36,930 nt of DNA, from NCBI GenBank assembly GCA_964372175.1, contig CAYJPP010000001.1:15130-52059 (forward strand), given 5' to 3'. This DNA is from an uncultured Muribaculaceae bacterium. GTDB lineage: Bacteria > Bacillota_I > Bacilli_A > RF39 > UBA660. Positions within the stretch are counted from its first letter, which is position 1. Each line of letters starts with the position of its first letter. The notes under the pieces are model-generated. The model was given only the letters and a program-made list of their open reading frames with translations, was not told the origin of the DNA and ran no database searches. Of the stretch, positions 3,401-26,885 are shown piece by piece. Made by a program: the position numbers and the translations under genes.

Positions 3401-4850
3401 ATCTTACTGTTATACTATACCCTTTACCAATTGAAAAAAACATTTTTTTATAAATATCACTATACAAATTACCATGAGTTGTCGTTACATTATTAGATAA
3501 ATCTGCTTTAATAACAGAGTCTTTGTATAGCATTAATAAAATATTTAATTCATCTATATACTCGCCATCAGGGCTCCCCCCTAAAGTATAGTAGCTTAAA
3601 TTTTCATAATCCGTCATTAACCAAGTTAAAAATTCATTATTAACTTCACTATAATGAACAAAATCAACTAAATAATTATATCCAATATTATTGACTAGAT
3701 TACGCTGCATTACAAGCATTTTATATTCTTGACTTAATATATTACTGTAACCAGTTTTAATTAACTCATCATACTCATTTATAGTTTTAAGATAAGCAGG
3801 AACTGCTGGAATTCTACTTATATATGAATCTATTATTGAAGCTGATTTTAAAACTGGCAAATTATCAAAACTAGTACTGCTTATATTCCATACTGTCTCA
3901 TCTAATAATAAAGTATTTTTAAAAAATCCATCATTAACATCATTACTAGAAATATCTCTTAACCAATTATAATTCTGTTTTTTAAAAGTATGAGCAGCCC
4001 AATCATATGAGTTTGTTCCTCCGCCATATCCATAACCAATTATTCTGTTAATTTCACTTACATCAACACCATCAGTAGCGTTTAAAACATTATTTAAATA
4101 AATATAATCGCCACTATCAGAGCTACCTAAAATCCCACCTCTTCTAGCAGTACCATTTACTGGTTTAAACAAAGTTTTTAATATGCTATTATTAATATTA
4201 ACAGTGCCTTCATTTTTACCTATAAATCCACCTACATGCCAACCTTTTCCGGTAGTTGTAGTTTCTATATAAACGTTATTAAAAGTAGTGACACCTTTAT
4301 TTAAAGCTATAACCCCACCAACATATTCTTTACCTTCAACATAAGTATTTGTTATAGAACTAGTATTAACTTCGACATTAGTTGTTTTAGCTACAAAACC
4401 ACTCACACCATTACCAGTATTAGATATAATTGAAGAATCGATAACATGCACATTAGTAAAAGTAGTATCAATCGCACTATTAGCTATAATTCCATATGAA
4501 CTATCATTAATAATATTAGCAGATGCTATAATCAAATCACTAATCACACTATTACTAAGTGAGTGAAATAAAGGTCTATTTAAATTTTTTATAGCATACC
4601 CATTACCTTTTATTTCCCCTGTAAAGTCATTCATGTAAGCTGCTTGATTAGTAAAATCATGCCCTAAAAAGTTCAAGTCACTTTGAACATTTATAACAGA
4701 TGCTGTTAAAAGAGCATTTAAAAATTCATCCGCGGTATTTACATCAACAGGCACACTAGAACTATATTCAGTATTACTCGCTTCTATATAATCTCCATTA
4801 ATTCCAAAGACCAAACTTAAAATCACAACAAAAATCGCACTTTTTTTCAT
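426..4850 (-). CDS. Large multidomain surface protein of 1,474 aa. It has a signal peptide, GLUG-type beta-helix repeats, a transglutaminase-like Cys/His core, F5/8 type C (discoidin) and FIVAR-like domains, an acidic linker and a C-terminal TM anchor.
   Basis: I place the start at ATG 4850 (MKKSAIFVVILSLVFG), with GGAGG 5 nt upstream; the track ORF extends a further 17 codons. Motifs seen: FTGEIKGNGYAIKNL, YVGGVIALNKG, HVGGFIGKNEG and RRGGILGSS (GLUG-like); GGGICWG...QPGHLAYVY (Cys/His core); ALPQFIIYEF...ALTLYGSLDGIHYEEI (discoidin-like). The tail ends WIFIGTTVLIGLIIVVYSKKRK. No LPXTG and no HExxH. Confidence 0.85.
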   Translation of the reverse strand: MKKSAIFVVILSLVFGINGDYIEASNTEYSSSVPVDVNTADEFLNALLTASVINVQSDLNFLGHDFTNQAAYMNDFTGEIKGNGYAIKNLNRPLFHSLSNSVISDLIIASANIINDSSYGIIANSAIDTTFTNVHVIDSSIISNTGNGVSGFVAKTTNVEVNTSSITNTYVEGKEYVGGVIALNKGVTTFNNVYIETTTTGKGWHVGGFIGKNEGTVNINNSILKTLFKPVNGTARRGGILGSSDSGDYIYLNNVLNATDGVDVSEINRIIGYGYGGGTNSYDWAAHTFKKQNYNWLRDISSNDVNDGFFKNTLLLDETVWNISSTSFDNLPVLKSASIIDSYISRIPAVPAYLKTINEYDELIKTGYSNILSQEYKMLVMQRNLVNNIGYNYLVDFVHYSEVNNEFLTWLMTDYENLSYYTLGGSPDGEYIDELNILLMLYKDSVIKADLSNNVTTTHGNLYSDIYKKMFFSIGKGYSITVRFWTAHQNDTDNDGVSVGTFDSYDHPSVSHPVDRYKVFKKLYNNNLLGYQNAVGVFVTSNLMFENLEVEEMRYVLNAHLDDETVEWLNWYIESEDEAAGLNEPGYYDNDNSRRSPYTYMVYTDKFGYYKAEFSDMSKFSEWDSKYKFSQFGIDTLYFESPKLWAVFEGGGICWGISKTGADIWNVSGVPANAVSQPGHLAYVYSSYDDVSDNMYWGWVYNSASNWGLTGSGGPTAMYDKFYVRMPLTWGDDSSVSGYNASYIFLSQENLNNFDVYKEGYLNRLVTNSFIDDIVKQEEILRNTIKINSRDYGAWLDLVKLYVNDGNKTNDELISLLEEVSSALEFSPLPMYHLFELVLPRIENLPSYSSIYYKMLDSNLNRDLNVTVSDNLEHLGIRQQAEHLLGIVDTDLATFSFDGEFANEIRLSADKFSGSKVVWDYSLDDGLTWKQVEEMNILLSDVELASITSLNDIKIHIVGLPYAEENIFVIDITDGVMNSVYLNDLENRLIGSSLILEYYDINSSKWISIGDNRFRGDISLEVRAKAYGTVLASETNTYTFTKNSDDVTKQYINIENITLVDSSKPYNADKTGNNLINGNINNNYYSVDALPQFIIYEFNNIIKLSKFDFLPYPTNTGRPKALTLYGSLDGIHYEEIQTFTNIENNNLLKEFNIDVIEEIKFIKIEFTESHGGGIAGNLANFYEDATVDISKLETVISNVTELLSNNNKTEEANNLLKSVYKDANNLLNSSYTQENIDTMVIELNNAITDFNNSLDKVVEDTTDEEIDDSDQEQVPDNNSSSQEENSDNSDQKDFTFNLDSDLDVVVNEESFKQLFDLEDLKSDDLTINLKIEFNYNTDELDFINNFIKGKNMIIGKMLNITLEKVVDGVVTNINNLSEEIELVLTIPEELRGDEKKFVVLRVHNGEVSVLDDLDDNDNTITIKTNKFSTYTIVEVAEDEVITEPIDEKNNYAWIFIGTTVLIGLIIVVYSKKRK

Positions 4851-4891
4851 AAAACCTCCACAGGTTTTCACCTGACATAATATTACTAGGT

Positions 4892-4920
4892 ATCTTATCA
4901 TCCTAAGAACTATAAGTCAA
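4892..4920 (-). promoter_or_regulatory. SigA-type promoter for the 1,474-aa gene
   Basis: The minus strand reads TTGACT, a 17-nt spacer, then TAAGAT, about 40 nt upstream of ATG 4850. Confidence 0.4.
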
Positions 4921-6637: not shown

Positions 6638-6660
6638 CAAAAAAGCGAATTTTATTCGCT
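6638..6660 (-). terminator. Rho-independent terminator of the giant gene
   Basis: The minus strand reads AGCGAAT-AAA-ATTCGCT followed by TTTTTTGTTGG. The 7-bp stem encloses the TAA stop at 6652-6654. Confidence 0.6.
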
Positions 6661-9600
6661 CTTAATTATAGTTTTGTCAATTAAATTTAGATCTTCACTA
6701 TTAGTGTAATTATCTTTATTTACATCACCAGCTAGTATGTATCCATCTATAAGTAGTTTAGTTTTGTTAATATGATTACTAAACTCTATTTTATCTAATA
6801 CATTAATTTTAGAATCGCCATTCAAGTCGCCTAATACAATTAGAGTGACTTCATCATAAATAATATCATCTACAACCAACTTAACTTTCATATTAGTACC
6901 TACTATACCAGTATATAAAGCATCATTCTTATATATTTTTATATGTTCACTATTATAAAAATTTTCTATGATTTCTGTGACTGGTATATTTTCTACAATC
7001 ACGTAATCATTATTAATTGTATAAATATCACTTTTTAAAGCTAATGCATCATTATCATTACTAATATTAATCTTATACTCTTGTACTGTATAATTATCAA
7101 CACCTATTACTTCAATTATATAACTATTAGGTAAATTAATATCACCCATTAAATTAACTGTTGCAGCTAAGTCATTAGCAATAGCTGTTATTTCACTTTC
7201 AAGCAACATATTTTTACTACTTGAAACAGCTAGATTATATTCAAACACAGTAGGTTCAAAGTCTATATTGTAGTTTTCTATTTTTAACTCTTTTAATAAT
7301 ACATCTGAAACTTCTTTTGATATATTAAATGTATACTCATTAACACTACCGTCTTCTGCTGTTATTGTAATTAATCTAGTACTTGTTCCATTAAGAATAC
7401 CTACTTGTTCGTGTCCTGTAACAACAGCACTGGTATCTTCAAGTATTACCTCAAATTCCAAAACACTAGCATCGTCTGGTAATATGAGTTCATAAGTTTT
7501 TGTTTCCGGTTCAAAGTTAATATTTCCAAATGAAGGTATAATATTAATAACATTATTATTAGTACTAGCTATTTTATCTACACCTAAATTATAAACATTA
7601 ACTAATCCACTTTCACTTGTTACAGCAACACTTAATTTATTGTTTCCAACTTCTAAATTATAAGATTCTAATCCAACAACAGTTGACTTAGGATCGTCAG
7701 CTACTCCAAATAAAATAACATCTGTAACATCAGGTTCAACTGTAATTTGATAGTCATTTTTATTTTTCACAAATTTAGGATTTAAATCAAATTGTTTATT
7801 TAAATCCCTTATTTGTAAAGAACTTAAATAATTATTATCAGAAATTATCTTATTAACATAAATAAAATATGATCTTTTAATTCCAATTGGCGAGGTAACA
7901 ATAACTTCAATTGTTTTTTCTTTTTCAAAGATTTCAACCGTTCCATCACCACTAACAGTAGCATTTGGATTCATTGTCTCTGTGATTATATCAACCATTG
8001 ATACTTCATTTTCTATATTGATTGTGTATTCTAAAATTTCTGGATTAAACATCGGTTCCATTAAGTGATTAGTAACTTCTAAATTATTCAATAAATTATC
8101 AGTATACATTTTTCTATACACAGTTATTGTATAAGTTTGTTCTGTAACGAAATCAGAAGCTAATACTTTTATTTCAACTGTATTCAATCCTTCTTTGAAT
8201 TCTTCATTACCTATAACTTGTACAAAGCCGTTAGGATCTTCTAACTCATACATCAGATCTAGTGAAGTTGTTTCATTATTAACTTCTATATTATAATCAA
8301 AGATGTTTTTATTGAAATCTGTATCAAAGGGATAATCTGCTGCTTTTAATTCAGTTAACAAAGCTGAATTAAGTTCGTTTCTAGTTATATTAACTTGATA
8401 TGTTTTAACATCACCATTTTCAGCAGTTACTACTACACTTATTTTGTTTTCACCAACAATTAAATCATATTCTCCTACACCTGATACTTTTGCATTACTA
8501 TCACTCGAACTGGCGTATACAAAGGTAGTATCAATCTCATAATCAACAATCAGTTCATAATTTAAAATATCTTTATCGAATACTGGCGTTAAAGGCCCAA
8601 TATCTGTATATAGTTTTTCTAAATCATTATTATTAGAACCTTCTTTTGTTACTATAATAACATATGATTTTGAATTTCCACTTTCACTGGTAACCAATAA
8701 TTGGATTATATTTCTTCCTACTTCCAGTTCGTGAATTCCATTCCCACTTACTACTGCACTTTGTTCTTCTGCAATACCTTCAACCGCAATACTATTAACA
8801 TCATTTAAAACATTCATTGTATAAAATGTTGTCGTTTTGTAAAATACTGGACTGTATTCATAATCCGTTATAATGTCACTTAAATTATTATTATCACTTG
8901 CTTCTTTGGTAACATTGATTTTATATGTTTTAGTTGTGACTAAATCAGGTGCGGTTACTGTAATTTCAATTAAGTTATCTCCTGTTGTTAATACTTCATT
9001 TCCAGTAACTTCATATGTTGACTTTTCTTCTGTCGGTTCAATAATAACAAAGTCTAAATCAGTTTCACTAGTTGTTAAATAGTAATCTGTAACATCTGTT
9101 CTAAAAGATGGATTTAAATTATGTGATTTTATAACAACTGATTTTAATGATGCATCACTACTCAATTTTCTAGTTACAACCACTTGATAATCTAACAAAT
9201 TATTATTTTCATCTAATGCGGTAACTACTAAAACATTTTTACCCTCTTTTAAACTATATGTCCCATTACCTATAATCCTCATACTCTCATCATTCAAAAT
9301 ACCTTCGATAGCTATTTCAGTTATCTCATTTTCAACTGTTACATAATAATCTCTTATTAAACTATCAAATTGTGGTTCTAGAACACCTTCTGATACTGAT
9401 AAATCGAATAAAGTTAAATCGGATAAATGTGGATTTTCTTTGTAAACATTTAAAGTATAGTCTTTTGTGTGAATTAAATCCTCAGCAGTCACTCTTATTA
9501 CAACTTCATTGTAACCTGTTACGAAATTACTGTTTCCAATTACTTCATAAGTAGCATTTTTATCCTCTGGTTCAATGGTAAGAGTTAGTGACTCAACACT

Positions 9601-12600
9601 ATTAGGTACGCGAAGTTGATAATGAATAGTTGTATCTTTAAAAGTTGGATTTAAGGCTGCTTCCTTAGCAAATAAAAAATCCAAATCATCATTTACAGAT
9701 AAATCTCTTATAACATTAACAACATAATCTCTTTCTTCACCACTCTCACTGGTAACTTTAATATTAATATTATTTTCACCAGTTATAAGCGAGTATTTAC
9801 CGTTTCCTGTAACTGTTGCTTTTCTACTTGTTGGAGTAGCTATTATTTCAATTTCATCAACTTCATTTTGAACATTAATTACATAAGTAGAATCATCAAT
9901 TTTACTAACTTCACTATTTTTATTGTTTTCTATTTTTAAAATCGAGTTATCGGTACTGACACCTCTGGTTATTATTAAAGTATAATCTTTTTCAATACCT
10001 GTTTCTGAAACTATTTTAAAATTAATTGTATTTTCTCCTACTTTTAAAGAATAGTTTCCATTCCCTACTACTTTTGAATCATTGTCAACCGGCATTATTT
10101 CTATATCAATAATATCAATGTCATTAGATACATTCATAGTGTATGTAGTTAAAGAATTATCAATAGTTTCATTAATCACACCTTTTGAAGATGTTATGCT
10201 GAATAGTTCGTTATTATCAGATATTTCTTTTGTTATATTTAAAGTATATAATCCAACCGCACCATTTTCAGCAGTAGTTTCAATTAAAATTTTCGTTTCT
10301 GTTTCATTTAAATTATTATTTAATATTTTATAATTAGTTGTCTCTGCTACTGTTGTTGCTGTTATATTTAAATTTGGAAGATGTTTATTAACTGTTAAGT
10401 CATATTCATACACACCACTATTAAATTCAAACGGATAGTTTTCAACAGTTAAAGTTTTTAATCTTGTATCATTATTTTTATCTTTTAAAACATTAATTAT
10501 ATAAACGTTTGATATCCCATTCCCACCAGTAACTGTTATAGTGATTTTAGTGTTTCCAGATTTAATCACATCAGGCTTATCTATTGTAACAACAGAATAT
10601 TCACTTTCTGGGGTTGCTACAATATCTATTGTATTAACATGGCTAGGCAAATTTAATGTATATTCATTAAATGTCTTATCAAACATTGGAGAAAGATTAT
10701 AAGTTTCCTCAGTCTCAAAAATTTCATCATAATTACTAATATTTAAATCCTTTAAAAATACATTAGTATCATTAGCCTTATAAACATATAAGACATAAGT
10801 TCTTTTTGTTCCATCAAATGATGTTACTTTAACAAAAGATACATTCATACCTATTTTTAAGTTCGTATTTCCACTAACTTCCACTGTTGCATTGGAAGCT
10901 TGCGGTGTTGCGATAACATCAAATGAATTATATGCACTATCAATAGTCAGATGATAAGCATGTACATCAGGATTAAAAGTAAAATCTATTACTGGATTAA
11001 CTATATCCAAAGTAGCTAGTTTATTATTACTATTTTGGTCAACTATAAAAGAATAACTGTAAGTACTTTTATTCAGACCGTCCTCGGCGGTTATTTCAAT
11101 TTGAAAGTTATTTATGGTATCTTCCATTGTTACTTGATAGTCTGTTAATGTTATAAATTCATCATTTTGATGTTTTTTCAATACAACTTCTTGATATTTT
11201 TGTGCTTTAACTATATCAAATTCAACATGCATTAAATTTGAAGGAATATTAATAATATAAGAGTTAGTATTTTTATCAAATGTGTAATCACAATATTCTA
11301 TCCCACAAATATATTCATACATTTTATTTATGATAATATCTTCTGGGAAAGGATTACTTGATATTTCTCTTGTTACATTAAATGTATAAGTTCTGATTTG
11401 CCCATTAGAAGCAGTTACTATCAATTCATATACTTGTGATTCAGCAGTAACTTCTTTAAGACCTGTTCCCACAACATATGCTTCATTATCTTTTGTGAGA
11501 GCTTCTATATCTAGTTCAGTTTGATGTTCAGTTAAATGTATATCATACTCTAAAACCCAAGGTTCGAAATCGATTTCAACTGAGCCATCATTCAATATTA
11601 TATTATCTAAGTAATTATTATTATTAGATTCAATGACAGTTATTTTAGCGTATCCGTTCCCACTATGTCCGGTTCCATAAGGATATAAACTACCAGTTGT
11701 ATTAGGCATCTGGCTTCTGCCACCTCGCACGTTACTCCAATGATAAGCATAACCATCAATCATTGATGTATTAGAGAATTTTAATCCAGAATAATGAACA
11801 GAACATCCATTATTTGTAGTTCCGGTCGTACATCCAGCTTTTGGAGCTTGGTTTGTAGCAGATGTTATTGCAACTGATCCTGTGTGACCAGATATGTATG
11901 ATGAACCACCACCGCCAGATCCAACAACAGAAGAGTTATAAGAGCCTCCTCCTCCGCCATAGTAGCCGCCTCCGCCACCGCTTCCATGACTATATTCTGG
12001 CATTCCACCAATCCCAAAACTACCATTTGTTGCACATCTATAACCACAACCTGCATTACCACCTGCTGTTTGTGTTCCACCAGTTGCATTTGCATAGTAA
12101 TTAGACCACGAACGATATTCACGCCCGTTATATCCAACTAATCCACCACCAGGTGAAGCGTTAGAAACTGGATACATCCAGTTAGAAATCCCCGATCCAG
12201 CACCAGCTACCATTATTCTACTACGTAAACTAGTAGCATCGTTCCAGGTTCCACCTACTAATCTAATATCCGTGGCACCGCCACTACCAGCACCATAAGT
12301 CTGTCCATTATAAGGTCGCCCTTCGCCTCCACCGTTATAACCACCGGTTTGATTGTTTGAAACAGTTCCAGATAATTTTCCTTGTCCGCCGACTTGAATA
12401 TATAGAGTTTGGTCTTTGTTAAGAGCAACAGTTCCAGCCGTATAAGCTCCTCTACCACCTAATAAAGAACCGTTATTTCCCCCTTGTGCGCCCCAAAGTT
12501 CTATTTTGTATAAGCTATCATATGGAGCGGTAAAAGTCTGAACACTTCCTGTAAATCCAAAATTAAAAGGATCTATTTTTAAAACTTCTTTATTAATTTT

Positions 12601-14430
12601 TAATTTATAAACACTAGTATCAAGACCTTCTATCGAAGAGGTAATTGTTATAATATCAGTATGTTCAAAGTACTTATTGCCTTCAACTGTTATAATGGCT
12701 TCTTTTAAATACGGCTCGGTTGTTACATCAAGCGCATACAAAAGATTAGAAACATCGAGTGTATAATTAGCTGTCGAGCTACTAAAAGCAAAATCAATAT
12801 TTGGATCACTCAAAGTAATGTTTTTTAATTTTGTGGTTCTTTCTTTTTCAAAATTAAATGTATAGATGTTAGTTCCACTGTTATCTTCTGCAACGACTAG
12901 TATAACAAACATCATACTTTGTTCATCAAATTGAAATATTGTATCTTCAAAACCGTTTATAGTAACTCCTTGATAAGGCATGTTTTTTAATACATCTAAT
13001 TTTATTTCTTCTGTATCATAAGGCATTGTTATGTTATATTCAAATATATTACTATCAAATTCAGAATATAATGTATCATTTATTTTAATCCCATCTAGTA
13101 TGGTGGTGCTGGATGGTTCTCTAATTAGATTAATTTCATAAAGTTGAGTTCTCCCAGTTGAATTTGTAACTGATAACGTATGTTTATGGCTATTAGGTTT
13201 AACACTTATTGTTGTTTGTCCAACTATTTGTTGTCCTGTTGGTGCACTTGCTGTAATTACAGCTTCTTTTACCATAGTGTCTAAATTTAAACTGTAACTA
13301 AATATGCCACCCGTCAAAGATATAGACTCACCATTTACAGTAATTGAATTTAACATCGGATCAATTACTTCTTCTTCATAAGTTATTTTTGCATATCCAT
13401 TTCCACTATGACCCACACCATTAGCATTAAGCCCTCCACTTGTAGTTGGCATTCTCAAATACCCGCCTTTTGTGTTAGTCCATTTATAACCAAAACCGTC
13501 AATCATAACAGTTTCAGTAAAAGTCATACCTGAATAATGAATAGAACAATTATTATTTGTAGTCCCAGTTGTACAACCTGATTTAGGTGCTTGGTTTGTA
13601 GCCGAAGTAATCGCTACTGAACCTGTATGGCCGGAAATATACGATGATCCTCCTGAACCGGAACCAACATGGCCGTGGTTATAAGCACCACCACCACCAC
13701 CGTAGTAGCCTCCTCCACCGCCACTTCCGTGTCCGCTTTCTGCTGCACCGCCAATTCCAAATGTTCCAGAACTCCCACATTTAAGACCACAAGACCTAGT
13801 TCCACCAGCAGTTTGAGTAGCCCCTGTTGCATTAGTTAATGGATCACCACTATGACTAACACTTCTACCAGGATAACCAATTAAACCACCAGCAGGTGCG
13901 GCATTGGAAATAGGCGATTGCCAGTTTGATAACCCCGATCCTGCTCCTGCCACCATAATTCTACTGCGTAAACTAGTTGCATTATTCCACTCACCGCCTA
14001 CTAACCTAACATCAGTTGCGCCGCCACTACCAGCACCATAAGTAGCTCCAGAATATGCTCTTGCTTCTTGCCCGCCATTATACCCAGCAGTAACACTAGC
14101 CGAACCAGCAAGTTTACCTTGGCCGCCAACTTGGATAAATATAGTTTGCCCTTTAATAAGCTCTACAACACCAGCTGTATAAGCTCCTCTACCACCAAGT
14201 AAAGAACCATTATTCCCACCTTGGGCCCCCCAAAGTTCTATCTTGTAAAATCCACTAACTGGCGCTGTAAATGATTGAACATTACCAGTATACCCAAAAT
14301 TATAAATCGTCCCTAAATTGGGCGCAGCTATTTCTTGATTTAAACTAATCTGATAATTAGAATTATCATTTAAAATATTAAAAATTAAAATACTACAAAT
14401 TAAAAGTACGAAGATAGCAAGTTTTTTCAT
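6652..14430 (-). CDS. Giant secreted protein of 2,592 aa. It has a signal peptide, two glycine-rich (ALK/LTK-type, PF12810-like) domains, 20 cadherin-like beta-sandwich modules and a C-terminal dockerin.
   Basis: A single uninterrupted ORF starting MKKLAIFVLLICSILIF, with SD AAGGTG upstream. Domain motifs are given under the repeat features below. No LPXTG motif and no TM anchor. Confidence 0.9.
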   Translation of the reverse strand: MKKLAIFVLLICSILIFNILNDNSNYQISLNQEIAAPNLGTIYNFGYTGNVQSFTAPVSGFYKIELWGAQGGNNGSLLGGRGAYTAGVVELIKGQTIFIQVGGQGKLAGSASVTAGYNGGQEARAYSGATYGAGSGGATDVRLVGGEWNNATSLRSRIMVAGAGSGLSNWQSPISNAAPAGGLIGYPGRSVSHSGDPLTNATGATQTAGGTRSCGLKCGSSGTFGIGGAAESGHGSGGGGGYYGGGGGAYNHGHVGSGSGGSSYISGHTGSVAITSATNQAPKSGCTTGTTNNNCSIHYSGMTFTETVMIDGFGYKWTNTKGGYLRMPTTSGGLNANGVGHSGNGYAKITYEEEVIDPMLNSITVNGESISLTGGIFSYSLNLDTMVKEAVITASAPTGQQIVGQTTISVKPNSHKHTLSVTNSTGRTQLYEINLIREPSSTTILDGIKINDTLYSEFDSNIFEYNITMPYDTEEIKLDVLKNMPYQGVTINGFEDTIFQFDEQSMMFVILVVAEDNSGTNIYTFNFEKERTTKLKNITLSDPNIDFAFSSSTANYTLDVSNLLYALDVTTEPYLKEAIITVEGNKYFEHTDIITITSSIEGLDTSVYKLKINKEVLKIDPFNFGFTGSVQTFTAPYDSLYKIELWGAQGGNNGSLLGGRGAYTAGTVALNKDQTLYIQVGGQGKLSGTVSNNQTGGYNGGGEGRPYNGQTYGAGSGGATDIRLVGGTWNDATSLRSRIMVAGAGSGISNWMYPVSNASPGGGLVGYNGREYRSWSNYYANATGGTQTAGGNAGCGYRCATNGSFGIGGMPEYSHGSGGGGGYYGGGGGSYNSSVVGSGGGGSSYISGHTGSVAITSATNQAPKAGCTTGTTNNGCSVHYSGLKFSNTSMIDGYAYHWSNVRGGRSQMPNTTGSLYPYGTGHSGNGYAKITVIESNNNNYLDNIILNDGSVEIDFEPWVLEYDIHLTEHQTELDIEALTKDNEAYVVGTGLKEVTAESQVYELIVTASNGQIRTYTFNVTREISSNPFPEDIIINKMYEYICGIEYCDYTFDKNTNSYIINIPSNLMHVEFDIVKAQKYQEVVLKKHQNDEFITLTDYQVTMEDTINNFQIEITAEDGLNKSTYSYSFIVDQNSNNKLATLDIVNPVIDFTFNPDVHAYHLTIDSAYNSFDVIATPQASNATVEVSGNTNLKIGMNVSFVKVTSFDGTKRTYVLYVYKANDTNVFLKDLNISNYDEIFETEETYNLSPMFDKTFNEYTLNLPSHVNTIDIVATPESEYSVVTIDKPDVIKSGNTKITITVTGGNGISNVYIINVLKDKNNDTRLKTLTVENYPFEFNSGVYEYDLTVNKHLPNLNITATTVAETTNYKILNNNLNETETKILIETTAENGAVGLYTLNITKEISDNNELFSITSSKGVINETIDNSLTTYTMNVSNDIDIIDIEIMPVDNDSKVVGNGNYSLKVGENTINFKIVSETGIEKDYTLIITRGVSTDNSILKIENNKNSEVSKIDDSTYVINVQNEVDEIEIIATPTSRKATVTGNGKYSLITGENNINIKVTSESGEERDYVVNVIRDLSVNDDLDFLFAKEAALNPTFKDTTIHYQLRVPNSVESLTLTIEPEDKNATYEVIGNSNFVTGYNEVVIRVTAEDLIHTKDYTLNVYKENPHLSDLTLFDLSVSEGVLEPQFDSLIRDYYVTVENEITEIAIEGILNDESMRIIGNGTYSLKEGKNVLVVTALDENNNLLDYQVVVTRKLSSDASLKSVVIKSHNLNPSFRTDVTDYYLTTSETDLDFVIIEPTEEKSTYEVTGNEVLTTGDNLIEITVTAPDLVTTKTYKINVTKEASDNNNLSDIITDYEYSPVFYKTTTFYTMNVLNDVNSIAVEGIAEEQSAVVSGNGIHELEVGRNIIQLLVTSESGNSKSYVIIVTKEGSNNNDLEKLYTDIGPLTPVFDKDILNYELIVDYEIDTTFVYASSSDSNAKVSGVGEYDLIVGENKISVVVTAENGDVKTYQVNITRNELNSALLTELKAADYPFDTDFNKNIFDYNIEVNNETTSLDLMYELEDPNGFVQVIGNEEFKEGLNTVEIKVLASDFVTEQTYTITVYRKMYTDNLLNNLEVTNHLMEPMFNPEILEYTINIENEVSMVDIITETMNPNATVSGDGTVEIFEKEKTIEVIVTSPIGIKRSYFIYVNKIISDNNYLSSLQIRDLNKQFDLNPKFVKNKNDYQITVEPDVTDVILFGVADDPKSTVVGLESYNLEVGNNKLSVAVTSESGLVNVYNLGVDKIASTNNNVINIIPSFGNINFEPETKTYELILPDDASVLEFEVILEDTSAVVTGHEQVGILNGTSTRLITITAEDGSVNEYTFNISKEVSDVLLKELKIENYNIDFEPTVFEYNLAVSSSKNMLLESEITAIANDLAATVNLMGDINLPNSYIIEVIGVDNYTVQEYKINISNDNDALALKSDIYTINNDYVIVENIPVTEIIENFYNSEHIKIYKNDALYTGIVGTNMKVKLVVDDIIYDEVTLIVLGDLNGDSKINVLDKIEFSNHINKTKLLIDGYILAGDVNKDNYTNSEDLNLIDKTIIKSE
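6655..6834 (-). other. Dockerin type I-like module, the last 60 aa of the giant protein
   Basis: There are two F-hand Ca-binding loops with D1-N3-D5-D12 spacing, about 35 aa apart: DLNGDSKINVLD and DVNKDNYTNSED. The preceding context is TLIVLGDLNGD. Confidence 0.65.
7045..11637 (-). repeat. Array of 17 tandem cadherin-like beta-sandwich modules of about 90 aa (protein-level repeats)
   Basis: The recurrent pattern is L..L.v....l.P.F......Y.l.V......i.i.a......a.v.GnG.y.L..GeN.i.i.VtsE.G....Y.i.V.R. Examples are SLKSVVIKSHNLNPSFRTDVTDYYLT...YKINVTKE and DLEKLYTDIGPLTPVFDKDILNYELIV...YQVNITRN. The modules have diverged at the DNA level. Confidence 0.7.
11638..12570 (-). repeat. Glycine-rich domain, copy 2 (aa ~621-931)
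   Basis: Motifs in order: FNFGFTGSVQTFTAP, YKIELWGAQGGNNGSLLGGRGAYTAG, YIQVGGQGK, YGAGSGGATDIRLVGG, SRIMVAGAGSG, HGSGGGGGYYGGGGG, GGSSYISGHTGSVAITSATNQAPK, GNGYAKIT. Confidence 0.7.
12571..13380 (-). repeat. Three cadherin-like modules between the two glycine-rich domains
   Basis: aa ~351-620, for example MLNSITVNGESISL...YEINLIRE, ILDGIKINDTLYSEFDSNIFEYNITM...YTFNFEKE and KLKNITLSDPNIDFAFSSSTANYTLDV...YKLKINKE. Confidence 0.6.
13381..14307 (-). repeat. Glycine-rich domain, copy 1 (aa ~42-350)
   Basis: The motifs are collinear with copy 2: YNFGYTGNVQSFTAP, YKIELWGAQGGNNGSLLGGRGAYTAG, HGSGGGGGYYGGGGG, GNGYAKIT. By eye roughly 70% of residues are identical, while synonymous sites have diverged. 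Confidence 0.7.
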
Positions 14431-21641: not shown

Positions 21642-23867
21642 TTATTTTATTACAAATTTTAATTGGCAATCAATTTCAGTTTCTTTATCATCGATTAATT
21701 TTAGCATTTCTGCAAAGTTATTACGATAAATATGTTTATTAGATAATAATATTTCATGTAATTTGGAAACAATTACATATTCAGTTGTACCTCTATTTAA
21801 TTGTTTTTTTAATTTTAATAATTCTTTACAAAAATTTTCATCTGTTATAACATCAGTTTTAATTGCTGCTACATAATAAATGATTTTTTTTATATAAGAT
21901 AATCTGTCTAATATTTTTTTTAATCGTTCAATAGTAATATTCTTTTCAAAAATTGCAGTAAGTGCTAAATCAGCTTGTTCAGTTAAAATCATCTTTAACT
22001 CTTTTTCTTTTTCTAAATTAATTTCTAGTATATACATTCTAACTAATTGTGAACGAATTGGTCCATTTTCGGTATTTTCGAGAGCTAACTTTTTCGCTTC
22101 TTCAAATTCTTTCAAAGCTCTACATACTGTTATTAACTGTGATTTTATAACTAAATTATGTACATGTTGATATCCTAATTGTTTTGCTATTTTTAAATAT
22201 TCTACTTTTCTTGTACTTGTTATACTTAAACAACTTTTAATTACTTCTGAAGCAGAGTATTCATCAAAGTTATATTTTAATCCATATTCAACAACTCGTT
22301 CATGTTGATTTTCTTCTCTTAAGGCCTTTAAAAATCTATGTTGATGTTTCAACTCATTTGGATATTTTTTTGCTATTTCACTTAGAATTATTGATTCTTT
22401 TATCTCAGAAGTTTCTGCCAGTCCATTTTCTAAAATATACTTTTCTCTTATTTCAATTTCTTCTCGTAGTTCTAAAAATGTGTCACCCACCAATTCTAAA
22501 TTTGCATAATATTTAGCTTTTTTTAAATCACCTTGTAATATATATATTCTAATTAACCGGGCACGAATTGGTTCATATTCGGTATTTTCGAGTGCTAATG
22601 TTTCAGCTTCTTCAAATTCCTTCAAAGCTATACATACTGTTATTAACTGTGATTTTATAGTTAAATTATGTACATGTTGATATCCTAATTGTTTTGCTAT
22701 TTTTAAATATTCTATTTTTCTTTTACTTGTTATACTTAAACAACTTTTAATTACTTCAAAAGCACAGTGTTCATCAAAGTTATATTTTAATCCATATTCA
22801 ACAACTCGTTCATGTTGATTTTCTTCTCTTAAGGCCTTTAAAAATCTATGTTGATGTTTCAACTCATTTGGATATTTTTTTGCTATTTCACTTAGAATTA
22901 TTGATTCTTTTATCTCAGAAGTTTCTGCCAGTCCATTTTCTAAAATATACTTTTCTCTTATTTCAATTTCTTCTCGTAGTTCTAAAAATGTGTCACCCAC
23001 CAATTCTAAATTTGCATAATATTTAGCTTTTTTTAAATCACCTTGTAATATATATATTCTAATTAACTGAGCACGAATTGGTCCATATTCGGTATTTTCG
23101 AGAGCTAACTTTTTCGCTTCTTCAAATTCTTTCAAAGCTATACATACTGTTATTAACTGTGATTTTATAACTAAATTATGCATATATTGATATCCTAGTT
23201 GTTGTGCTATTTTTAAATATTCTATTTTTCTTTTACTTGTTATACTTAAACAGTTTTTAATTATTTCTGAAACAAAATATTCATCAGAAACATACTTCAA
23301 ACCAAATTCAATAGCGCTTTCATATTCCTTTGCTTCTCTTAAAATTCTTAAATAGAAGTATTGCCATTTCATATAAGTTGGATACTTTTTTGCCATTTCA
23401 TAAATATATTCAAGATTATTACTTTCATAAATTTTTTTAAAATTTCCTTGTGACGCATATAGTTCAATTAATTGTGAACGAATAGGTAGATAACATGTAC
23501 TTTCAAGTGCCAATTTTTCTGCTATCTTAATTTCTTTTAATTCTATACACACGGTTATTAATTGTGATTTTATAACTAAATTATGCATATATTGATATCC
23601 TAGTTGTTGTGCGACTTTTAAGTAATATATTCTTTTTTTATTTTCCATCGGTATACTTAAACAAGTTTTAATTGTTTGTGAAATAAAGTATTCATCATCA
23701 GTATATTTTAATCCAAGTTCAATTGCTCTTTCATATTGCTGTTCTTTTCTTAAAATTTTTAAAAAAAGATATTGTACTTCTTTATTATCTGGATATTCTT
23801 CTGCCATTTTGTGAAAATATTTATAATCCTTCCTATCATATGCATTTTTTAAATCTTCTTCTAACAT
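21642..23867 (-). CDS. Helical (TPR-like) repeat protein of 741 aa, function unknown
   Basis: Four internal units, each starting at YP (YPDNKE, YPTYMK, YPNELK, YPNELK). They are followed by a unique C-terminal region of about 120 aa. SD AAGGAG upstream. No signal peptide or TM segment. Confidence 0.8.
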   Translation of the reverse strand: MLEEDLKNAYDRKDYKYFHKMAEEYPDNKEVQYLFLKILRKEQQYERAIELGLKYTDDEYFISQTIKTCLSIPMENKKRIYYLKVAQQLGYQYMHNLVIKSQLITVCIELKEIKIAEKLALESTCYLPIRSQLIELYASQGNFKKIYESNNLEYIYEMAKKYPTYMKWQYFYLRILREAKEYESAIEFGLKYVSDEYFVSEIIKNCLSITSKRKIEYLKIAQQLGYQYMHNLVIKSQLITVCIALKEFEEAKKLALENTEYGPIRAQLIRIYILQGDLKKAKYYANLELVGDTFLELREEIEIREKYILENGLAETSEIKESIILSEIAKKYPNELKHQHRFLKALREENQHERVVEYGLKYNFDEHCAFEVIKSCLSITSKRKIEYLKIAKQLGYQHVHNLTIKSQLITVCIALKEFEEAETLALENTEYEPIRARLIRIYILQGDLKKAKYYANLELVGDTFLELREEIEIREKYILENGLAETSEIKESIILSEIAKKYPNELKHQHRFLKALREENQHERVVEYGLKYNFDEYSASEVIKSCLSITSTRKVEYLKIAKQLGYQHVHNLVIKSQLITVCRALKEFEEAKKLALENTENGPIRSQLVRMYILEINLEKEKELKMILTEQADLALTAIFEKNITIERLKKILDRLSYIKKIIYYVAAIKTDVITDENFCKELLKLKKQLNRGTTEYVIVSKLHEILLSNKHIYRNNFAEMLKLIDDKETEIDCQLKFVIK
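22023..23795 (-). repeat. Intragenic tandem repeat with a 510-bp (170-aa) period in units 2-4. It contains a 298-bp perfect direct repeat.
   Basis: nt 22260-22557 match nt 22770-23067 base for base in my alignment, at an offset of 510. Flanking unit sequence is about 85-95% identical. Unit 1 is shorter and more diverged. Confidence 0.85.
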
Positions 23868-23891: not shown

Positions 23892-23920
23892 ATTATACTT
23901 AAATATAGTTATGATGTCAA
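23892..23920 (-). promoter_or_regulatory. Perfect consensus SigA promoter of the repeat-protein gene
   Basis: The minus strand reads TTGACA, tcataactatatttaag (17 nt), then TATAAT, about 25 nt upstream of ATG 23867. Confidence 0.6.
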
Positions 23921-23946: not shown

Positions 23947-24669
23947 TTATTTTTTTAAATACTGATTTATATTATACCCATCTTTGAATTCAATAAATTT
24001 TGATAATCTAGGGTGGATTGCTTTTTTAGGACAATTATATATACAACTCATACACATCATACATTTCAAACTGAATTTCGGCTTTTTATTAACTTTAATG
24101 TTATTTCTAGGACATGTTTTTTGACATAACCCACAAGATATACAATTATTATTTGCTTTTAGTTCTAACCCAAATAATCTTACCATAAAATTTTCAATTC
24201 CATGTATATGATAAAATATTTTTGATTTAAAAGGAATTTTAACTTTATCATTTTTATTGTTTAAAATACTCTTAGAAATTTTATCAATTTCATTACTTGC
24301 TTGTTTAATTATTTTTCTACCATATTTTATATCAAATTTTTTAACAATTGTTAAAGGCATTGCTATAACTTTATATACCCCTATTTCAATATTGTTCTTT
24401 TTAGCGTATTTTAACACTTTTAATCCGGCTGTTTGATTTACAAAGCTATTATTACACCCTACCATTATTAAGCTAATTTTATTGACATTCCCTATATTTT
24501 CAATTAAATTATTAGGAATTCTAAATGCATGAATAGAACTCATTATAATTAAGTGTTCACAAGGTGTTTTTCTATTATCAATTTGACAATTTAACTTTTC
24601 TTTTAAAATATTAGCTAAATATTTAGTATTTCCAGTCGCACTAAATAATAATATTTGATATTTACTCAT
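23947..24669 (-). CDS. EFR1-type ferredoxin: a flavodoxin-like N-domain fused to a 2x[4Fe-4S] domain
   Basis: 240 aa. ILLFSATGNTKYLA (flavodoxin-like) plus CISCGLCQKTCP and CMMCMSCIYNCP. Confidence 0.75.
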   Translation of the reverse strand: MSKYQILLFSATGNTKYLANILKEKLNCQIDNRKTPCEHLIIMSSIHAFRIPNNLIENIGNVNKISLIMVGCNNSFVNQTAGLKVLKYAKKNNIEIGVYKVIAMPLTIVKKFDIKYGRKIIKQASNEIDKISKSILNNKNDKVKIPFKSKIFYHIHGIENFMVRLFGLELKANNNCISCGLCQKTCPRNNIKVNKKPKFSLKCMMCMSCIYNCPKKAIHPRLSKFIEFKDGYNINQYLKK

Positions 24670-24697: not shown

Positions 24698-25048
24698 TTA
24701 TAGCTTTTTAGTATGTTCTTTTTCTATTTGAGGTAATATTGTTAAGTAAAAATTATCCTGTATATTAAAAATATTTAGACTAATTAAAACATCATATACA
24801 TCCATGTTTTTATATTCTTTTATATAAAGTGGTAATCGCCTTGTAAAGAAATTTGGTAATTGATTAAAAGAAATTACTTCATCATATGTTTTTGTATAAA
24901 AAGGTAATACACAACCGTGTTCTTTTGCGAGTTTTGCTTCTTTAAAATACTTAAACAAATATCCTGTTTCTGTCTTTATTAATTGTCCTATATGAATTGT
25001 TCTGTTTTCTTTATATGAAAGCCATGTTAAGTATATAGTTTCATTCAT
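24698..25048 (-). CDS. HipS-like protein, a stand-alone homologue of HipA N-terminal subdomain 1
   Basis: 116 aa. TIHIGQLIKTETGYLFKYFKEA...LPNFFTRRLP parallels the HipA N-terminus (RVGELTKLANGAHTFKYAPEW...VFNFFDNLLPD). The ATG overlaps the kinase stop (ATGA), and GGAGGG lies 8 nt upstream. Confidence 0.55.
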   Translation of the reverse strand: MNETIYLTWLSYKENRTIHIGQLIKTETGYLFKYFKEAKLAKEHGCVLPFYTKTYDEVISFNQLPNFFTRRLPLYIKEYKNMDVYDVLISLNIFNIQDNFYLTILPQIEKEHTKKL

Positions 25049-26151
25049 ATTGACTTCCCTCCAATTTCAAAATTTTGTTCAAAGTAATTAACCATCCATT
25101 CAGCTCTTCTAAGTACTAATTCCTCGGCAAAAATTAACCTTTCTGTTGGTATTTCATCTACATACGTATTTAGTATCCCAGTAATACTTTCAAGAGTTAT
25201 ATTTTCTTTTATTTTTGACATTATGTCTTTAATTTCGTTTGGATAAAATGTTGTTAAATATTCAATTAATGGTTGATATGTAACTGTAGTAACATCGAAT
25301 TTTTTATATTTTTTTTCAATATTCTTTAATCTTTTGTGATATTCAGAAATACTTAGCATTCTTTTTTCTACTAGTGCTTCTAACTGTTTTTTTTCGGTGT
25401 GGATTTCTGATAATATTTTAGTTATTTGATGATTATCCCATGTTCTTTTTTCTTTATACTGTAAGCTTCTCTCTATCGTTAGTTTACTTGTTATGTGTTT
25501 ATGGATTACAACATTTAACATTTCATCATTAATTTCTAGCGTTCGAAGGCTAATACATTTATCTAATCTCTCATCTCCCATTGACATTCCAAAAGATGTG
25601 CAGCTATCATACAATGGTGAGAATGTATGAGTTCCTGTTTGAAGATCATTTATTATTCCGTAATTAGATGGATTTCTATCTCTATTAGCTATTAGAGCAT
25701 CAAAAACAATCATTTCTAGTGCTTCTTTAATTAACCCATATTTTCCAACAGATTCTAAGAGTAGTGAAACAGTATATAATTGGTGTGTGTCAGGATTTAG
25801 TAACTGCATATTTTTAAAACCTGGATCAATCATCCTAATCAAACTTACACCATCAACCAACTCATAACGTTTAGGTGATGATTCATTATTTAAAAAGTTT
25901 TTTGATATTACACCTTTTTTTCCATTTTTAACACATAAATTATACTCTGCAACTGGAATGTCGAGCAGCTTCCCTACATCTGATGCGATACATTCAGATA
26001 CATCATTATAGACTGAACTCCCATCTTTTCTTATTGTAGCAATTTTAAATAAGTATAACTCATTATCTAAAACAACCCATTCCTTCTTTTGTTTACCTAA
26101 GGCTTCATATAAATAAAATTCGCTTGCATCAATATTTCTTCTCATAATCAC
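25045..26151 (-). CDS. HipA/HipT-like Ser/Thr kinase core lacking N-subdomain 1
   Basis: 368 aa. P-loop-like ALGKQKKEW (compare HipA GAQEK), catalytic FDALIANRDRNPSNYGII (compare GATDGHAKNFSVF) and the Mg-binding SPLYD (compare TPFYD). The start is either GTG 26151, overlapping the truA TGA, or ATG 26145. Confidence 0.7.
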   Translation of the reverse strand: MIMRRNIDASEFYLYEALGKQKKEWVVLDNELYLFKIATIRKDGSSVYNDVSECIASDVGKLLDIPVAEYNLCVKNGKKGVISKNFLNNESSPKRYELVDGVSLIRMIDPGFKNMQLLNPDTHQLYTVSLLLESVGKYGLIKEALEMIVFDALIANRDRNPSNYGIINDLQTGTHTFSPLYDSCTSFGMSMGDERLDKCISLRTLEINDEMLNVVIHKHITSKLTIERSLQYKEKRTWDNHQITKILSEIHTEKKQLEALVEKRMLSISEYHKRLKNIEKKYKKFDVTTVTYQPLIEYLTTFYPNEIKDIMSKIKENITLESITGILNTYVDEIPTERLIFAEELVLRRAEWMVNYFEQNFEIGGKSI

Positions 26152-26885
26152 ATATAGAAAACATTTTTTAAATATAATCCTTCTGGCGGCGCAGTTATTC
26201 CGGCCTTTGTTCTATCTTTTGATTCAATTATATCTAAAACTTCTTCACTCTTTCTTTTACCTTCACCAATCTCAATTAAAGTACCTACCATATTTCTAAC
26301 TTGATACCTTAAAAATCCTGTTCCCAAAAACACTAGTGTTAGTTCATTAACATTTTTTAAATTCCTAATAATATTTGTTTGAACAATTGTTCTGACACAG
26401 TCTTTTTCTTCATCCGTTTTAGCAAATGCTTTAAAATCTTTTGTACCTTCTAATTGTTTTAAGCCTCGTTCAATTTCTATAATATCTAACCTTTTATTGT
26501 GTTGATATATATATTTTCTTTCAATAGGATTATATTCTCCCATATTAATTTTATAAATATACTCCTTAGCTTTTACATTAAATCTAGCATGAAAGTCTTT
26601 ATCAACTTCTTCAACTTCTTTAATATAAATGTCTTTTGGTAATAAACTATTTAAAGATTGTTTTAATTTGTTAATAGGTATTTTTTTTTCTAAATCAAAA
26701 TGTGCTTTTTGATTTAAAGCATGCACACCAGCATCTGTTCTTCCAGATGCATGAATACTTATATCAGTTGTAGTTATTTTTTTTAAAACTGCTTCTATCT
26801 CATTTTGGACTGTTTTACCTTTTAATTGTTTTTGATATCCATTATAAGAAGAACCATCATAACTAAACGTTATTAAGTATCTCAT
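26148..26885 (-). CDS. truA: tRNA pseudouridine(38-40) synthase
   Basis: 245 aa. GRTDAGVHA catalytic motif. ATGA overlap with ecfT. The position after the ecf genes is conserved in Firmicutes. Confidence 0.95.
   Translation of the reverse strand: MRYLITFSYDGSSYNGYQKQLKGKTVQNEIEAVLKKITTTDISIHASGRTDAGVHALNQKAHFDLEKKIPINKLKQSLNSLLPKDIYIKEVEEVDKDFHARFNVKAKEYIYKINMGEYNPIERKYIYQHNKRLDIIEIERGLKQLEGTKDFKAFAKTDEEKDCVRTIVQTNIIRNLKNVNELTLVFLGTGFLRYQVRNMVGTLIEIGEGKRKSEEVLDIIESKDRTKAGITAPPEGLYLKNVFYM

Follow-up and report, generated by a model that had tools for sequence, protein, structure and literature searches.

A kinase-first gene pair with a HipS-like partner in an ecf-truA operon of an uncultured low-GC Bacilli genome

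Introduction

In the stretch of 36,930 nucleotides analysed here (the window), a gene for a HipA-like kinase and a small gene directly downstream of it stand between truA and a ferredoxin gene. The locus raises the question of whether such a pair is a toxin-antitoxin or defence module, or a part of the housekeeping operon in which it lies. A sequence-only reading had described it as a split HipA-like system in reverse order, coupled to truA, and had flagged uncertainty as to whether the arrangement was already catalogued. The arrangement is not new. Kinase-first modules without an HTH protein, having either a HipS-only (hipJS) or a HipS-HIRAN (hipIN) partner, were catalogued in 2021 by Gerdes, Baerentsen & Brodersen (mBio, PMC8262856); there, both are putative toxin-antitoxin modules with the HipS-type antitoxin encoded downstream.

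The pair is a real two-gene kinase module and most likely serves as a toxin-antitoxin or a phage-defence system. The new element is modest: a small separate clade with a kinase longer by about 75 aa than the hipIN kinases, in a layout that is itself known.

The kinase core and its active site

Both open reading frames lie on the minus strand at the positions proposed earlier (Table 1), and the three motifs quoted for the kinase are found: ALGKQKKEW (residues 17-25), ANRDRNPSN (155-163, with the Asp158 codon at 25678-25680) and SPLYD (178-182). The kinase reading frame extends to a GTG at 26151 (25045..26151, minus strand), which would give 368 aa. Since the family members begin with "MR..." in the alignment, the start is likely the ATG at 26145 and not the truA-overlapping GTG. 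Thus, of the two junctions that had been left open, the abutting one, with the ATG 2 nt past the truA TGA, is the likely one.

Table 1. Features of the gene pair and its neighbours (window coordinates)
Feature	Position	Strand	Remarks
EFR1-family ferredoxin	23947..24669	-	Downstream neighbour, context only; NCBIfam NF038196, E 3e-32; 28-nt gap; own GAGGAG Shine-Dalgarno sequence
HipS-like protein	24698..25048	-	116 aa; homologue of HipA N-subdomain 1; presumed neutralising partner, by analogy
ATGA overlap of kinase stop and small-ORF start	25045..25048	-	Translational coupling, read from sequence
Shine-Dalgarno GGAGGG of the small ORF	25057..25062	-	Within the kinase 3' end; 8 nt before the ATG
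HipA-superfamily Ser/Thr kinase core	25045..26145	-	366 aa from ATG 26145; without HipA N-subdomain 1
Family-specific helical insertion	25282..25488	-	About residues 222-290, borders approximate; long helix 228-262 and helix 268-279 predicted in the model
Mg-binding motif	25606..25620	-	Residues 178-182, SPLYD, Asp182; P179 and D182 invariant
Catalytic loop	25663..25689	-	Residues 155-163, ANRDRNPSN; catalytic Asp158, Asn163; N156, D158, S162 and N163 invariant
Lys36 codon (YLFK)	26044..26046	-	Putative ATP-binding lysine; invariant; aligns with the conserved Lys of LFK/ILK in hipIN kinases and HipA
Gly-rich (ATP phosphate-binding) loop	26077..26106	-	Residues 16-25, EALGKQKKEW; E16, G19, K23 and W25 invariant
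Junction truA TGA - TT - ATG kinase	26143..26150	-	Genes directly adjoining, with neither promoter nor terminator between them
truA (tRNA pseudouridine synthase A)	26148..26885	-	Upstream neighbour, context only; Pfam PseudoU_synth_1, E 1e-40

The product is a HipA-superfamily kinase core lacking N-subdomain 1, as the sequence-only reading had supposed, and Pfam, PADLOC, PDB and Foldseek comparisons are concordant in this. Its score against Pfam HipA_C (PF07804) exceeds the gathering score by a small margin (31.4 bits against 30.5, E 1.8e-7), and the same match is precomputed for most of its homologues. Eight PDC-M03A models of PADLOC are matched, with an E value of 5.1e-39. The AlphaFold model (pLDDT 90.2) has a predicted HipA-type kinase fold, for which Foldseek returned CtkA (3AKK, E 2.8e-13), HipA (3TPV, E 1.5e-6) and HipT(Lp) (E 3e-4).

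An alignment of 26 family members was used to assess the active site. Residues E16, G19, K23, W25, K36, N156, D158, S162, N163, P179 and D182 are invariant in all 26, including the catalytic Asp, whose conservation in orthologues had been named as a point to be checked. All four core motifs of the HipA kinase superfamily are found in these sequences: the Gly-rich loop (G19/K23), the lysine (K36), the catalytic residues (D158/N163) and the Mg-binding D182. The catalytic loop aligns with LLGNFDRHNGNW of CtkA and LVGNEDMHLKNF of HipT(Lp), and SPLYD aligns with APIFD and SPAYD of the same two proteins, respectively. The Gly-rich loop has the family consensus EPVGKQPKYW and aligns with SLAGAQPK of HipA. 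It carries no conserved Ser/Thr in the window kinase family, whereas hipIN kinases have EGSGRSEKIW at this place; the Ser/Thr that serves autophosphorylation control in HipA/HipT is absent from the loop of the window kinase.

The kinase had also been credited with an extra C-terminal region of about 150 aa. This is corrected to an insertion of about 75 residues near positions 222-290, which the hipIN-type kinases (~291 aa) do not have. The terminal helices are present in hipIN-type kinases and CtkA as well. In the alignment, gaps cover part of the stretch in the hipIN-type P0069 and a smaller part in the shorter family member P0066. The TM score between CtkA (296 aa in the structural match) and the kinase model is 0.64 on the query and 0.78-0.81 on CtkA.

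CtkA has been described as a secreted, host-translocated kinase rather than a toxin. The CtkA of Helicobacter pylori is the best PDB match of the window kinase by both sequence and fold, and some family MAGs are gut or faecal, judged by their names (e.g., Ca. Faecisoma merdavium, Hadza). It might be supposed on these grounds that the kinase is exported or released and acts on host or competitor proteins, the small protein being its chaperone or immunity factor. We consider this very unlikely. The kinase begins at beta-strands, and its model predicts neither an N-terminal hydrophobic helix nor a leader; no secretion genes adjoin the pair. Furthermore, both the HipS-like partner and hipIN as the sister group indicate control inside the cell.

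The HipS-like partner

The small protein is HipS-like according to five independent lines of evidence. Against Pfam Couple_hipA (PF13657) it scores 18.9 bits (E 2.2e-3), which is below the cutoff of 22.5. PADLOC PDC-M03B is matched with an E value of 4.9e-8 over only the N-terminal ~75-100 of ~240 model positions. The profile of the small-protein family has HipS(Lp) (7VKB_B, E 6.8e-3) as its best match in the PDB, and hhalign aligns this family with the HipN N-domain at 97.6% (E 4.7e-12). The fifth line is the predicted structure (pLDDT 82.2), for which Foldseek ranks first 7CZO, the H. influenzae protein HI_0666 under the deposition title "N-terminal domain of HipA toxin", with a probability of 0.99 and TM 0.53/0.57 over 110 columns at an E value of only 0.09; the runners-up have probabilities of at most 0.2. 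The model thus has the predicted fold of N-subdomain 1. The earlier view of this protein as the missing subdomain is borne out by these results, although the PF13657 check itself remained below the cutoff. Support for homology to PF13657 is indirect: the hhalign match to HipN N-domains, and a Couple_hipA score above the Pfam cutoff in 6 of the 10 hipIN-type partners scanned.

All ten of those hipIN-type partners also contain a HIRAN domain. A domain scan gave no HIRAN match in the 116-aa protein, and the partner proteins across the window family are all 112-133 aa long. The family was assembled from relatives' partner loci: a word-indexed search with the small protein returned the query alone, and the profile built from these loci recovered 34 proteins. 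Arg71 of the FFxxR motif is invariant in the small protein. In a putative register it may take a position similar to that of Trp65 in HipS, opposite Glu16, likewise invariant, in the kinase loop.

Gene junctions and expression signals

The ATGA overlap and the GGAGGG sequence are both present where they had been placed. The 4-nt overlap of kinase and partner recurs in 11/16 relatives, and the remaining junctions vary between a 10-nt overlap and a 5-nt gap. Ahead of the small ORF, a GAGG/GGAGG-type motif occurs in 17 of the 19 relatives scanned; ahead of the kinase, no such motif was found in 17/19, mostly GGTGA being there. A strong ribosome-binding site of the partner together with a weak one of the kinase favours an excess of the partner. 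This resembles the logic of toxin-antitoxin systems.

Upstream of the kinase, all 16 relatives examined have an extended -10 element (TGnTAnAAT) with the GGTGA Shine-Dalgarno sequence, and in several of them intrinsic terminators flank the pair. The window is different. The terminator scan found no intrinsic terminator within the ecf-truA-pair-ferredoxin operon, and the number of promoter-like sites in it (69) does not exceed that in shuffled sequence (62.6 +/- 8.2). Since the promoter and terminators that make the module autonomous in relatives are missing here, the pair has been taken up into the ecf-truA operon.

Operon setting

The operon order is ecfA1-ecfA2-ecfT-truA-kinase-small gene-EFR1 ferredoxin, in agreement with the order read at first, and is confirmed by ORFs and domain matches. 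The ORF list likewise confirms that the small gene follows the kinase and that no HTH gene is adjacent. Within the window, no integrase, transposase or defence island was found near the pair. Base composition gives no sign of a foreign origin, the GC content of the pair matching that of its surroundings. A gene in the neighbourhood carries 510-nt repeats, which were found by a repeat search and missed by Tandem Repeats Finder.

The position next to truA had suggested a functional coupling to TruA or tRNA modification, for instance a kinase with tRNA-related targets under common regulation with truA. The 2-nt spacing between the truA TGA and the kinase ATG in the window is in keeping with this, as is glyS placed after the pair in one relative. 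The known HipA/HipT targets are aminoacyl-tRNA synthetases (PMC8262856). The comparative context largely refutes the proposal, which we regard as scarcely credible. In none of the 16 relatives with the pair does truA lie within 6 kb of it, none of the 80 related ecfA1-ecfA2-ecfT-truA loci has the pair downstream of truA, and seven MAGs carry the two on different contigs. In the relatives, moreover, the pair is under its own promoter. The truA linkage is seen only in the window genome, so no conserved functional link to truA or tRNA modification can be drawn from it. The EFR1 ferredoxin gene adjoins the pair in no pair-bearing relative either. The slot after truA is variable and holds other accessory genes in relatives, rplM being directly next in only 19/66 of them; in one locus (L098), a SocA/Panacea antitoxin-domain gene occupies the slot downstream of truA.

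Distribution and relatives

The window family forms a small clade, set well apart from others, in MAGs of low-GC uncultured Bacilli/Mycoplasmatota, and is confined to one lineage. Among 1.84 billion proteins, only 7 representatives of the family were found at E<=1e-30. A genome search with the kinase as single query gave no match, and the relatives' loci were recovered with an alignment as query. The pair occurs in 14 species genomes as against 152 with a close truA; among the 14 closest truA-bearing species, it is present in 7. Kinase and small partner stand together in each of the 16 loci examined in relatives, and the pair is also kept by the three members that diverge most (P0060, P0063, P0066). 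At least five upstream neighbours were observed: a ~320-aa signal-peptide protein, mreD, the 3' end of another gene, an 867-aa protein and truA. One relative has the order mreCD-pair-glyS.

In the neighbour-joining tree, the window family is monophyletic and sister to the hipIN kinases. The more distant relatives have the hipIN arrangement, with a kinase of ~291-325 aa followed by a protein of ~229-266 aa. Phage records contain only distant relatives of 26-28% identity. A pair of 126-aa and 366-aa proteins encoded next to ileS (L081) was considered as a HipS-first paralogue and rejected, as it resembles neither the kinase nor the small protein significantly; it looks helical-repeat.

Several of these features would suit a domesticated two-subunit kinase, in which the small protein is an obligatory structural subunit in place of HipA N-subdomain 1, not an antitoxin, and which has a regulatory housekeeping role in these small-genome bacteria, such as the tuning of translation or envelope growth. 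The family is small and keeps to one lineage. Its kinases have diverged to much the same degree as EcfT in the same MAGs (51-53% identity against 51-55%), which would equally fit a domesticated kinase inherited vertically over a long time. The pair is always co-directional in housekeeping arrays (mreCD-pair-glyS, truA-pair), there is no HTH autoregulator or mobile-element gene near it, and in the window it appears from the sequence to be co-transcribed with a constitutive operon. The loop without a Ser/Thr for autophosphorylation agrees with this as well. Against domestication stand the patchy presence of the pair and its movement as a unit with its own promoter, in several genomes with terminators also. 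The nearest homologues, hipIN/PDC-M03, count as candidate toxin-antitoxin or defence systems, and the strong partner and weak kinase ribosome-binding sites speak on the same side. On balance, domestication is an unlikely explanation.

Proposed mechanism and significance

The explanation we favour, and hold to be reasonably probable, is a HipA-superfamily two-gene module with a hipJS-type layout, closest to hipIN/PDC-M03 and working, by analogy, as an inhibited kinase. The first gene would provide a Ser/Thr kinase core without HipA N-subdomain 1. The second gene, ATGA-coupled and with a much stronger ribosome-binding site, would provide the HipS-like product and with it, in trans, the subdomain that the kinase lacks. 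By analogy with HipS of HipBST, this protein may dock by the Gly-rich loop and hold the kinase inactive. If the partner were lost or displaced, for example upon phage infection or when the module itself is lost, the kinase thus freed could phosphorylate an essential component; by analogy, its target may lie in the translation apparatus, and growth arrest would follow. The analysis establishes the genes with their homologies and folds, the conserved active site and the conserved pairing, the varied context and the expression signals in relatives; we infer the binding and inhibition by the small protein, the toxicity of the kinase, its target and the defence or addiction role. To our knowledge, neutralisation by a HipS-type protein has been demonstrated for HipBST only. 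As to the genomic history, the module is an autonomous unit at varied sites in the relatives; in the window it has lost its signals and is fused onto the ecfA1-ecfA2-ecfT-truA operon, at the operon's 3' end.

A combined reading can also be formulated. In it, the pair is domesticated and serves as a constitutive brake on growth or translation, or as an "addiction" device that protects the operon, instead of being a mobile defence cassette that stands by itself, and the clade is a distinct uncatalogued Hip family in which the ~75-aa insertion replaces HIRAN sensing. This is quite unlikely in our estimation.

The novelty is modest, and current understanding is not overturned. The kinase-first HipS-only layout is rare, with only 2 hipJS modules in the 2021 survey (PMC8262856), and it is extended here by a coherent clade from uncultured low-GC Bacilli/Mycoplasmatota. 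The clade offers dozens of sequences in which to study the control of a HipI/CtkA-like kinase by a HipS-type protein where no DNA-binding component takes part. It also provides an example of operon capture, the module being autonomous in relatives and absorbed into a housekeeping operon in the window. This is a caution that the gene neighbourhood in a single genome can be misleading for function.

Comparison with known Hip systems

CtkA (JHP940; 3AKJ/3AKK/3AKL), the closest known structure to the window kinase (E 5e-7 by sequence), is named a proinflammatory kinase in its PDB entry. It has catalytic and Mg-binding motifs in common with the window kinase at an identity of only ~16%; unlike it, CtkA is 325 aa long and without the helical insertion. 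We know of no HipS-like partner reported for CtkA.

Compared with HipBST, the window pair likewise represents a split HipA, with the kinase core and N-subdomain 1 as separate proteins, and the small protein has its best PDB matches in HipS(Lp) of HipBST and H. influenzae HI_0666. In HipBST, HipS neutralises HipT by taking the place of N-subdomain 1, where it locks the Gly-rich loop (PMC10627512). That system has HipS upstream and a HipB HTH gene, whereas the window has the reversed gene order, no HipB, and truA and ferredoxin genes as neighbours, with no HTH ORF. The S-psi-S autophosphorylation motif is also absent, and the window kinase is much closer to CtkA/HipI than to HipT (Foldseek E 3e-13 vs 3e-4).

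The layout of hipJS is the one found in the window: a kinase core without N-subdomain 1, then a HipS-only gene directly downstream, and no HTH or other DNA-binding partner. According to PMC8262856, HipJ kinases form a subclade in main clade XI, are closely related to hipIN kinases, and measure 279-321 aa, mostly with a Ser/Thr by the Gly-rich loop; the window kinase differs in its 366-368 aa and in the lack of a loop Ser/Thr, HipJ being compared here by description only. The same survey groups the hipJS HipS with HipBST HipS and HipA-N, and mentions its Tenericutes kinases only under clade VII hipBA. The window partner matches HipN N-domains (E 5e-8, 4.7e-12) better than HipS/HipA-N (E 2e-3 to 7e-3), in searches that are not directly comparable.

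hipIN corresponds to the PADLOC phage-defence candidate PDC-M03 and consists of the HipI kinase and HipN, a HipS-like-HIRAN protein. The window pair differs from it in a partner without HIRAN (116 aa vs ~229-266 aa) and in a kinase that is longer and lacks the loop serines (GSGRS). Both window proteins nevertheless match PDC-M03A/PDC-M03B, the gene order is equal, and the Glu-x-x-Gly register of the loop is shared. Most hipIN junctions are tight too, nearly all of them lying between a 46-nt overlap and a 14-nt gap.

Kinase and Partner

The sequence-only reading proposed that a HipA-like kinase is split here, that its HipS-like partner is encoded downstream and that HipB is lacking; this core is supported by sequence and fold matches. 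The motifs it named in the kinase (ALGKQKKEW, ANRDRNPSN with Asp158, and SPLYD) are all present. The kinase narrowly passes the Pfam HipA_C cutoff (31.4 against 30.5 bits) and strongly matches PDC-M03A, the PADLOC models of hipIN kinases (E 5e-39). Among solved structures, the kinase-family profile matches CtkA (E 5e-7) and HipT(Lp) of HipBST (E 7e-4), and the alignments take in the catalytic loop and the Mg motif. The AlphaFold model is confident (pLDDT 90.2); its best fold match is CtkA (E 3e-13, TM 0.78-0.81 on CtkA), followed by HipA (E 1.5e-6) and then HipT (E 3e-4). Residues G19, K23, K36, D158, N163 and D182 are invariant in an alignment of 26 homologues; the proposal is therefore not undermined by an unconserved catalytic Asp.

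The small protein matches Pfam Couple_hipA weakly (E 2e-3), but its score of 18.9 bits lies below the cutoff of 22.5. Its HipS-like character is borne out by the PADLOC hipIN partner models, PDC-M03B (E 5e-8), and by a profile search of PDB sequences, in which HipS(Lp) was the sole meaningful match (E 7e-3). Alignment of the family to the N-terminal domain of HipN proteins by hhalign gave 97.6% probability (E 4.7e-12). The clear top fold match of the model (pLDDT 82.2) is 7CZO (prob 0.99, TM 0.53/0.57), the H. influenzae protein HI_0666 under the deposited name "N-terminal domain of HipA toxin". On the sequence and predicted-fold matches of both proteins, the pair is a HipA-type kinase in split form, its partner being HipS-like.

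The two overlapping ORFs were found as described, with an ATGA shared by the kinase stop and the small-ORF start and a GGAGGG Shine-Dalgarno (SD) sequence 8 nt 5' of the small-ORF ATG. Family members open with "MR"; therefore the matching ATG, 2 nt past the truA TGA, is the probable kinase start rather than the GTG overlapping truA.

Coordinates of features in the window and in loci of relatives
Locus	Position	Strand	Feature
Window	25045-26151	minus	Kinase ORF, 368 aa counted from GTG
Window	26145		Probable kinase start (ATG)
Window	25678-25680		Asp158 codon
Window	25057-25062		GGAGGG SD
Window	24698-25048	minus	Small ORF, 116 aa
Window	23892-23920	minus	Sigma-70 consensus promoter, TTGACA-17-TATAAT, 12/12
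Window	21642-23867	minus	741-aa TPR-like protein gene, built of four ~510-nt (170-aa) repeat units
Window	6652-14430	minus	Giant putative surface protein, 2592 aa: four Cadherin-like domains, ALK/LTK glycine-rich domain, C-terminal dockerin
Window	426-4901	minus	Giant putative surface protein, 1491 aa: M26 peptidase N-terminal region, F5/8 type C domain
L081	11454-12928		Overlapping 126-aa and 366-aa genes between divIVA and ileS
L098	1467-2841		truA-rplM slot: 77-aa and 90-aa ORFs, 253-aa SocA/Panacea antitoxin-domain protein (PF13274, E 1.2e-13)
L107	5738-6562		truA-rplM slot: 274-aa ORF of no known identity, 4-nt overlap with truA stop

Family and Distribution

There are 69 kinase homologues in the database, mostly of 366-388 aa and ~50% identical. 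When 1.84 billion representatives were searched exhaustively, only seven kinase matches reached E<=1e-30, the next (5e-21) following after a gap; this is a small family, set clearly apart from others. Among species-representative genomes the pair occurs in 14 MAGs, labelled uncultured Bacilli, Tenericutes, Ca. Faecisoma merdavium or Acholeplasma sp. CAG:878. A partner of 112-133 aa lies directly 3' of the kinase in all 16 loci examined, with the 4-nt overlap of the window in 11, and the three most divergent members also have a downstream partner.

More distant kinase relatives (25-36% identical) are found in Lachnospiraceae, Paenibacillus, Betaproteobacteria and Actinobacteria, where a kinase of ~291-325 aa is followed by a protein of ~229-266 aa. 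HIRAN was present in 10/10 scanned partners and Couple_hipA exceeded the Pfam cutoff in six of the ten; such an organisation is that of hipIN. In a neighbour-joining tree rooted on a HipA, the window family is monophyletic and sister to hipIN-type kinases.

The L081 genes encode proteins without Pfam matches, the larger having a helical-repeat look on inspection; considered as a relative of the kinase pair, they were rejected, neither being significantly similar to it.

Genomic Setting and Expression Signals

The gene order proposed earlier was found on one strand: ecfA1, ecfA2, ecfT and truA upstream of the kinase, and an EFR1-family ferredoxin downstream of the small gene. The pair is joined to truA as TGA-TT-ATG, is separated from the ferredoxin by 28 nt, and has the base composition of its surroundings. 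In the operon interior, neither a promoter nor a terminator is conspicuous. The perfect consensus promoter is located in the gap that separates the ferredoxin from the TPR-repeat gene, and the ecf-truA-kinase-ferredoxin transcription unit probably ends there. In the TPR-like gene, three of the copies of the 300-nt repeat core are 87-100% identical in DNA; weak Pfam matches to RelA_SpoT and NAMPT_N recur with each unit and are probably spurious.

The suggested coupling to truA did not survive comparison. Searching 14 pair-bearing loci by tblastn with the window neighbours found no truA, ecfT or ferredoxin. In relatives the pair sits 3' of a ~320-aa signal-peptide protein, an 867-aa protein, mreD (with glyS after the pair) or the 3' end of a further, unidentified gene. 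Conversely, the pair was in none of 80 related ecfA1-ecfA2-ecfT-truA loci (TruA 63-74% identical), and in seven MAGs pair and truA are on separate contigs. L094 is the nearest relative examined; it has rplM-rpsI after truA, and rplM lies <=600 nt 3' of truA in only 19 of 66 loci. The slot downstream of truA is variable in relatives and holds other accessory genes. For these reasons, the truA linkage is not meaningful.

In each of the 16 relatives, loci L001-L014, L081 and L087, the ~30 nt 5' of the kinase start contain a conserved promoter of the extended -10 type (TGnTAnAAT) together with a GGTGA SD. In several, intrinsic terminators (AAAAAGAGG..CCTCTTTTT) stand on both sides of the unit, the second one directly 3' of the small ORF, in the ~30 nt after it. 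All these signals are absent from the window pair. In relatives the module travels as an autonomous unit with its own expression signals; in the window genome it has been absorbed into the ecf-truA operon. Of 19 relatives scanned, 17 have a strong SD 5' of the partner, and at the kinase a search for a motif of this kind came up empty in 17 of the 19, so that an excess of partner over kinase would be expected.

Possible Function

HipS fills the N-subdomain-1 position and keeps the Gly-rich loop locked, thereby neutralising HipT (PMC10627512). The hipIN genes count as candidates for defence (PMC11706625); for a different system with a HipA-family kinase, a defence function has been validated (PMC13092281). 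By analogy, the pair would most likely be a kinase toxin restrained by its HipS-like partner, in a toxin-antitoxin or abortive-infection-type system; the main rival, a domesticated two-subunit kinase, seems rather unlikely.

Kinase Glu16, three residues before the loop Gly, occupies the position of HipA Ser150 and is conserved in the window family and most hipIN kinases. Arg71 of the partner's FFxxR motif is invariant, and HipN also has F..R. A putative Arg71-Glu16 contact may stand in place of the HipS Trp65 wedge.

Comparison with Known Systems

The reverse gene order without HipB, put forward as unusual, is already known. Gerdes et al. (2021) placed the kinase-first modules hipIN, hipJS and fused hipL in main clade XI (PMC8262856). 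The hipIN partner has HipS-like and HIRAN domains (14 modules); hipJS has a HipS-only partner and no DNA-binding protein (two modules), and HIRAN loss from hipIN was suggested as its origin (PMC8262856). The kinases of the window family fall outside the size range published for hipJS, 279-321 aa (PMC8262856), and in the available part of the survey Tenericutes entries are mentioned solely under clade VII hipBA; the window family was therefore probably not sampled there. Compared with hipIN, its kinase has ~75 further residues, which form a helical insertion at about residues 222-290, and its partner has lost HIRAN. The consensus of its Gly-rich loop reads EPVGKQPKYW, as against EGSGRSEKIW in hipIN, and thus contains no conserved Ser/Thr.
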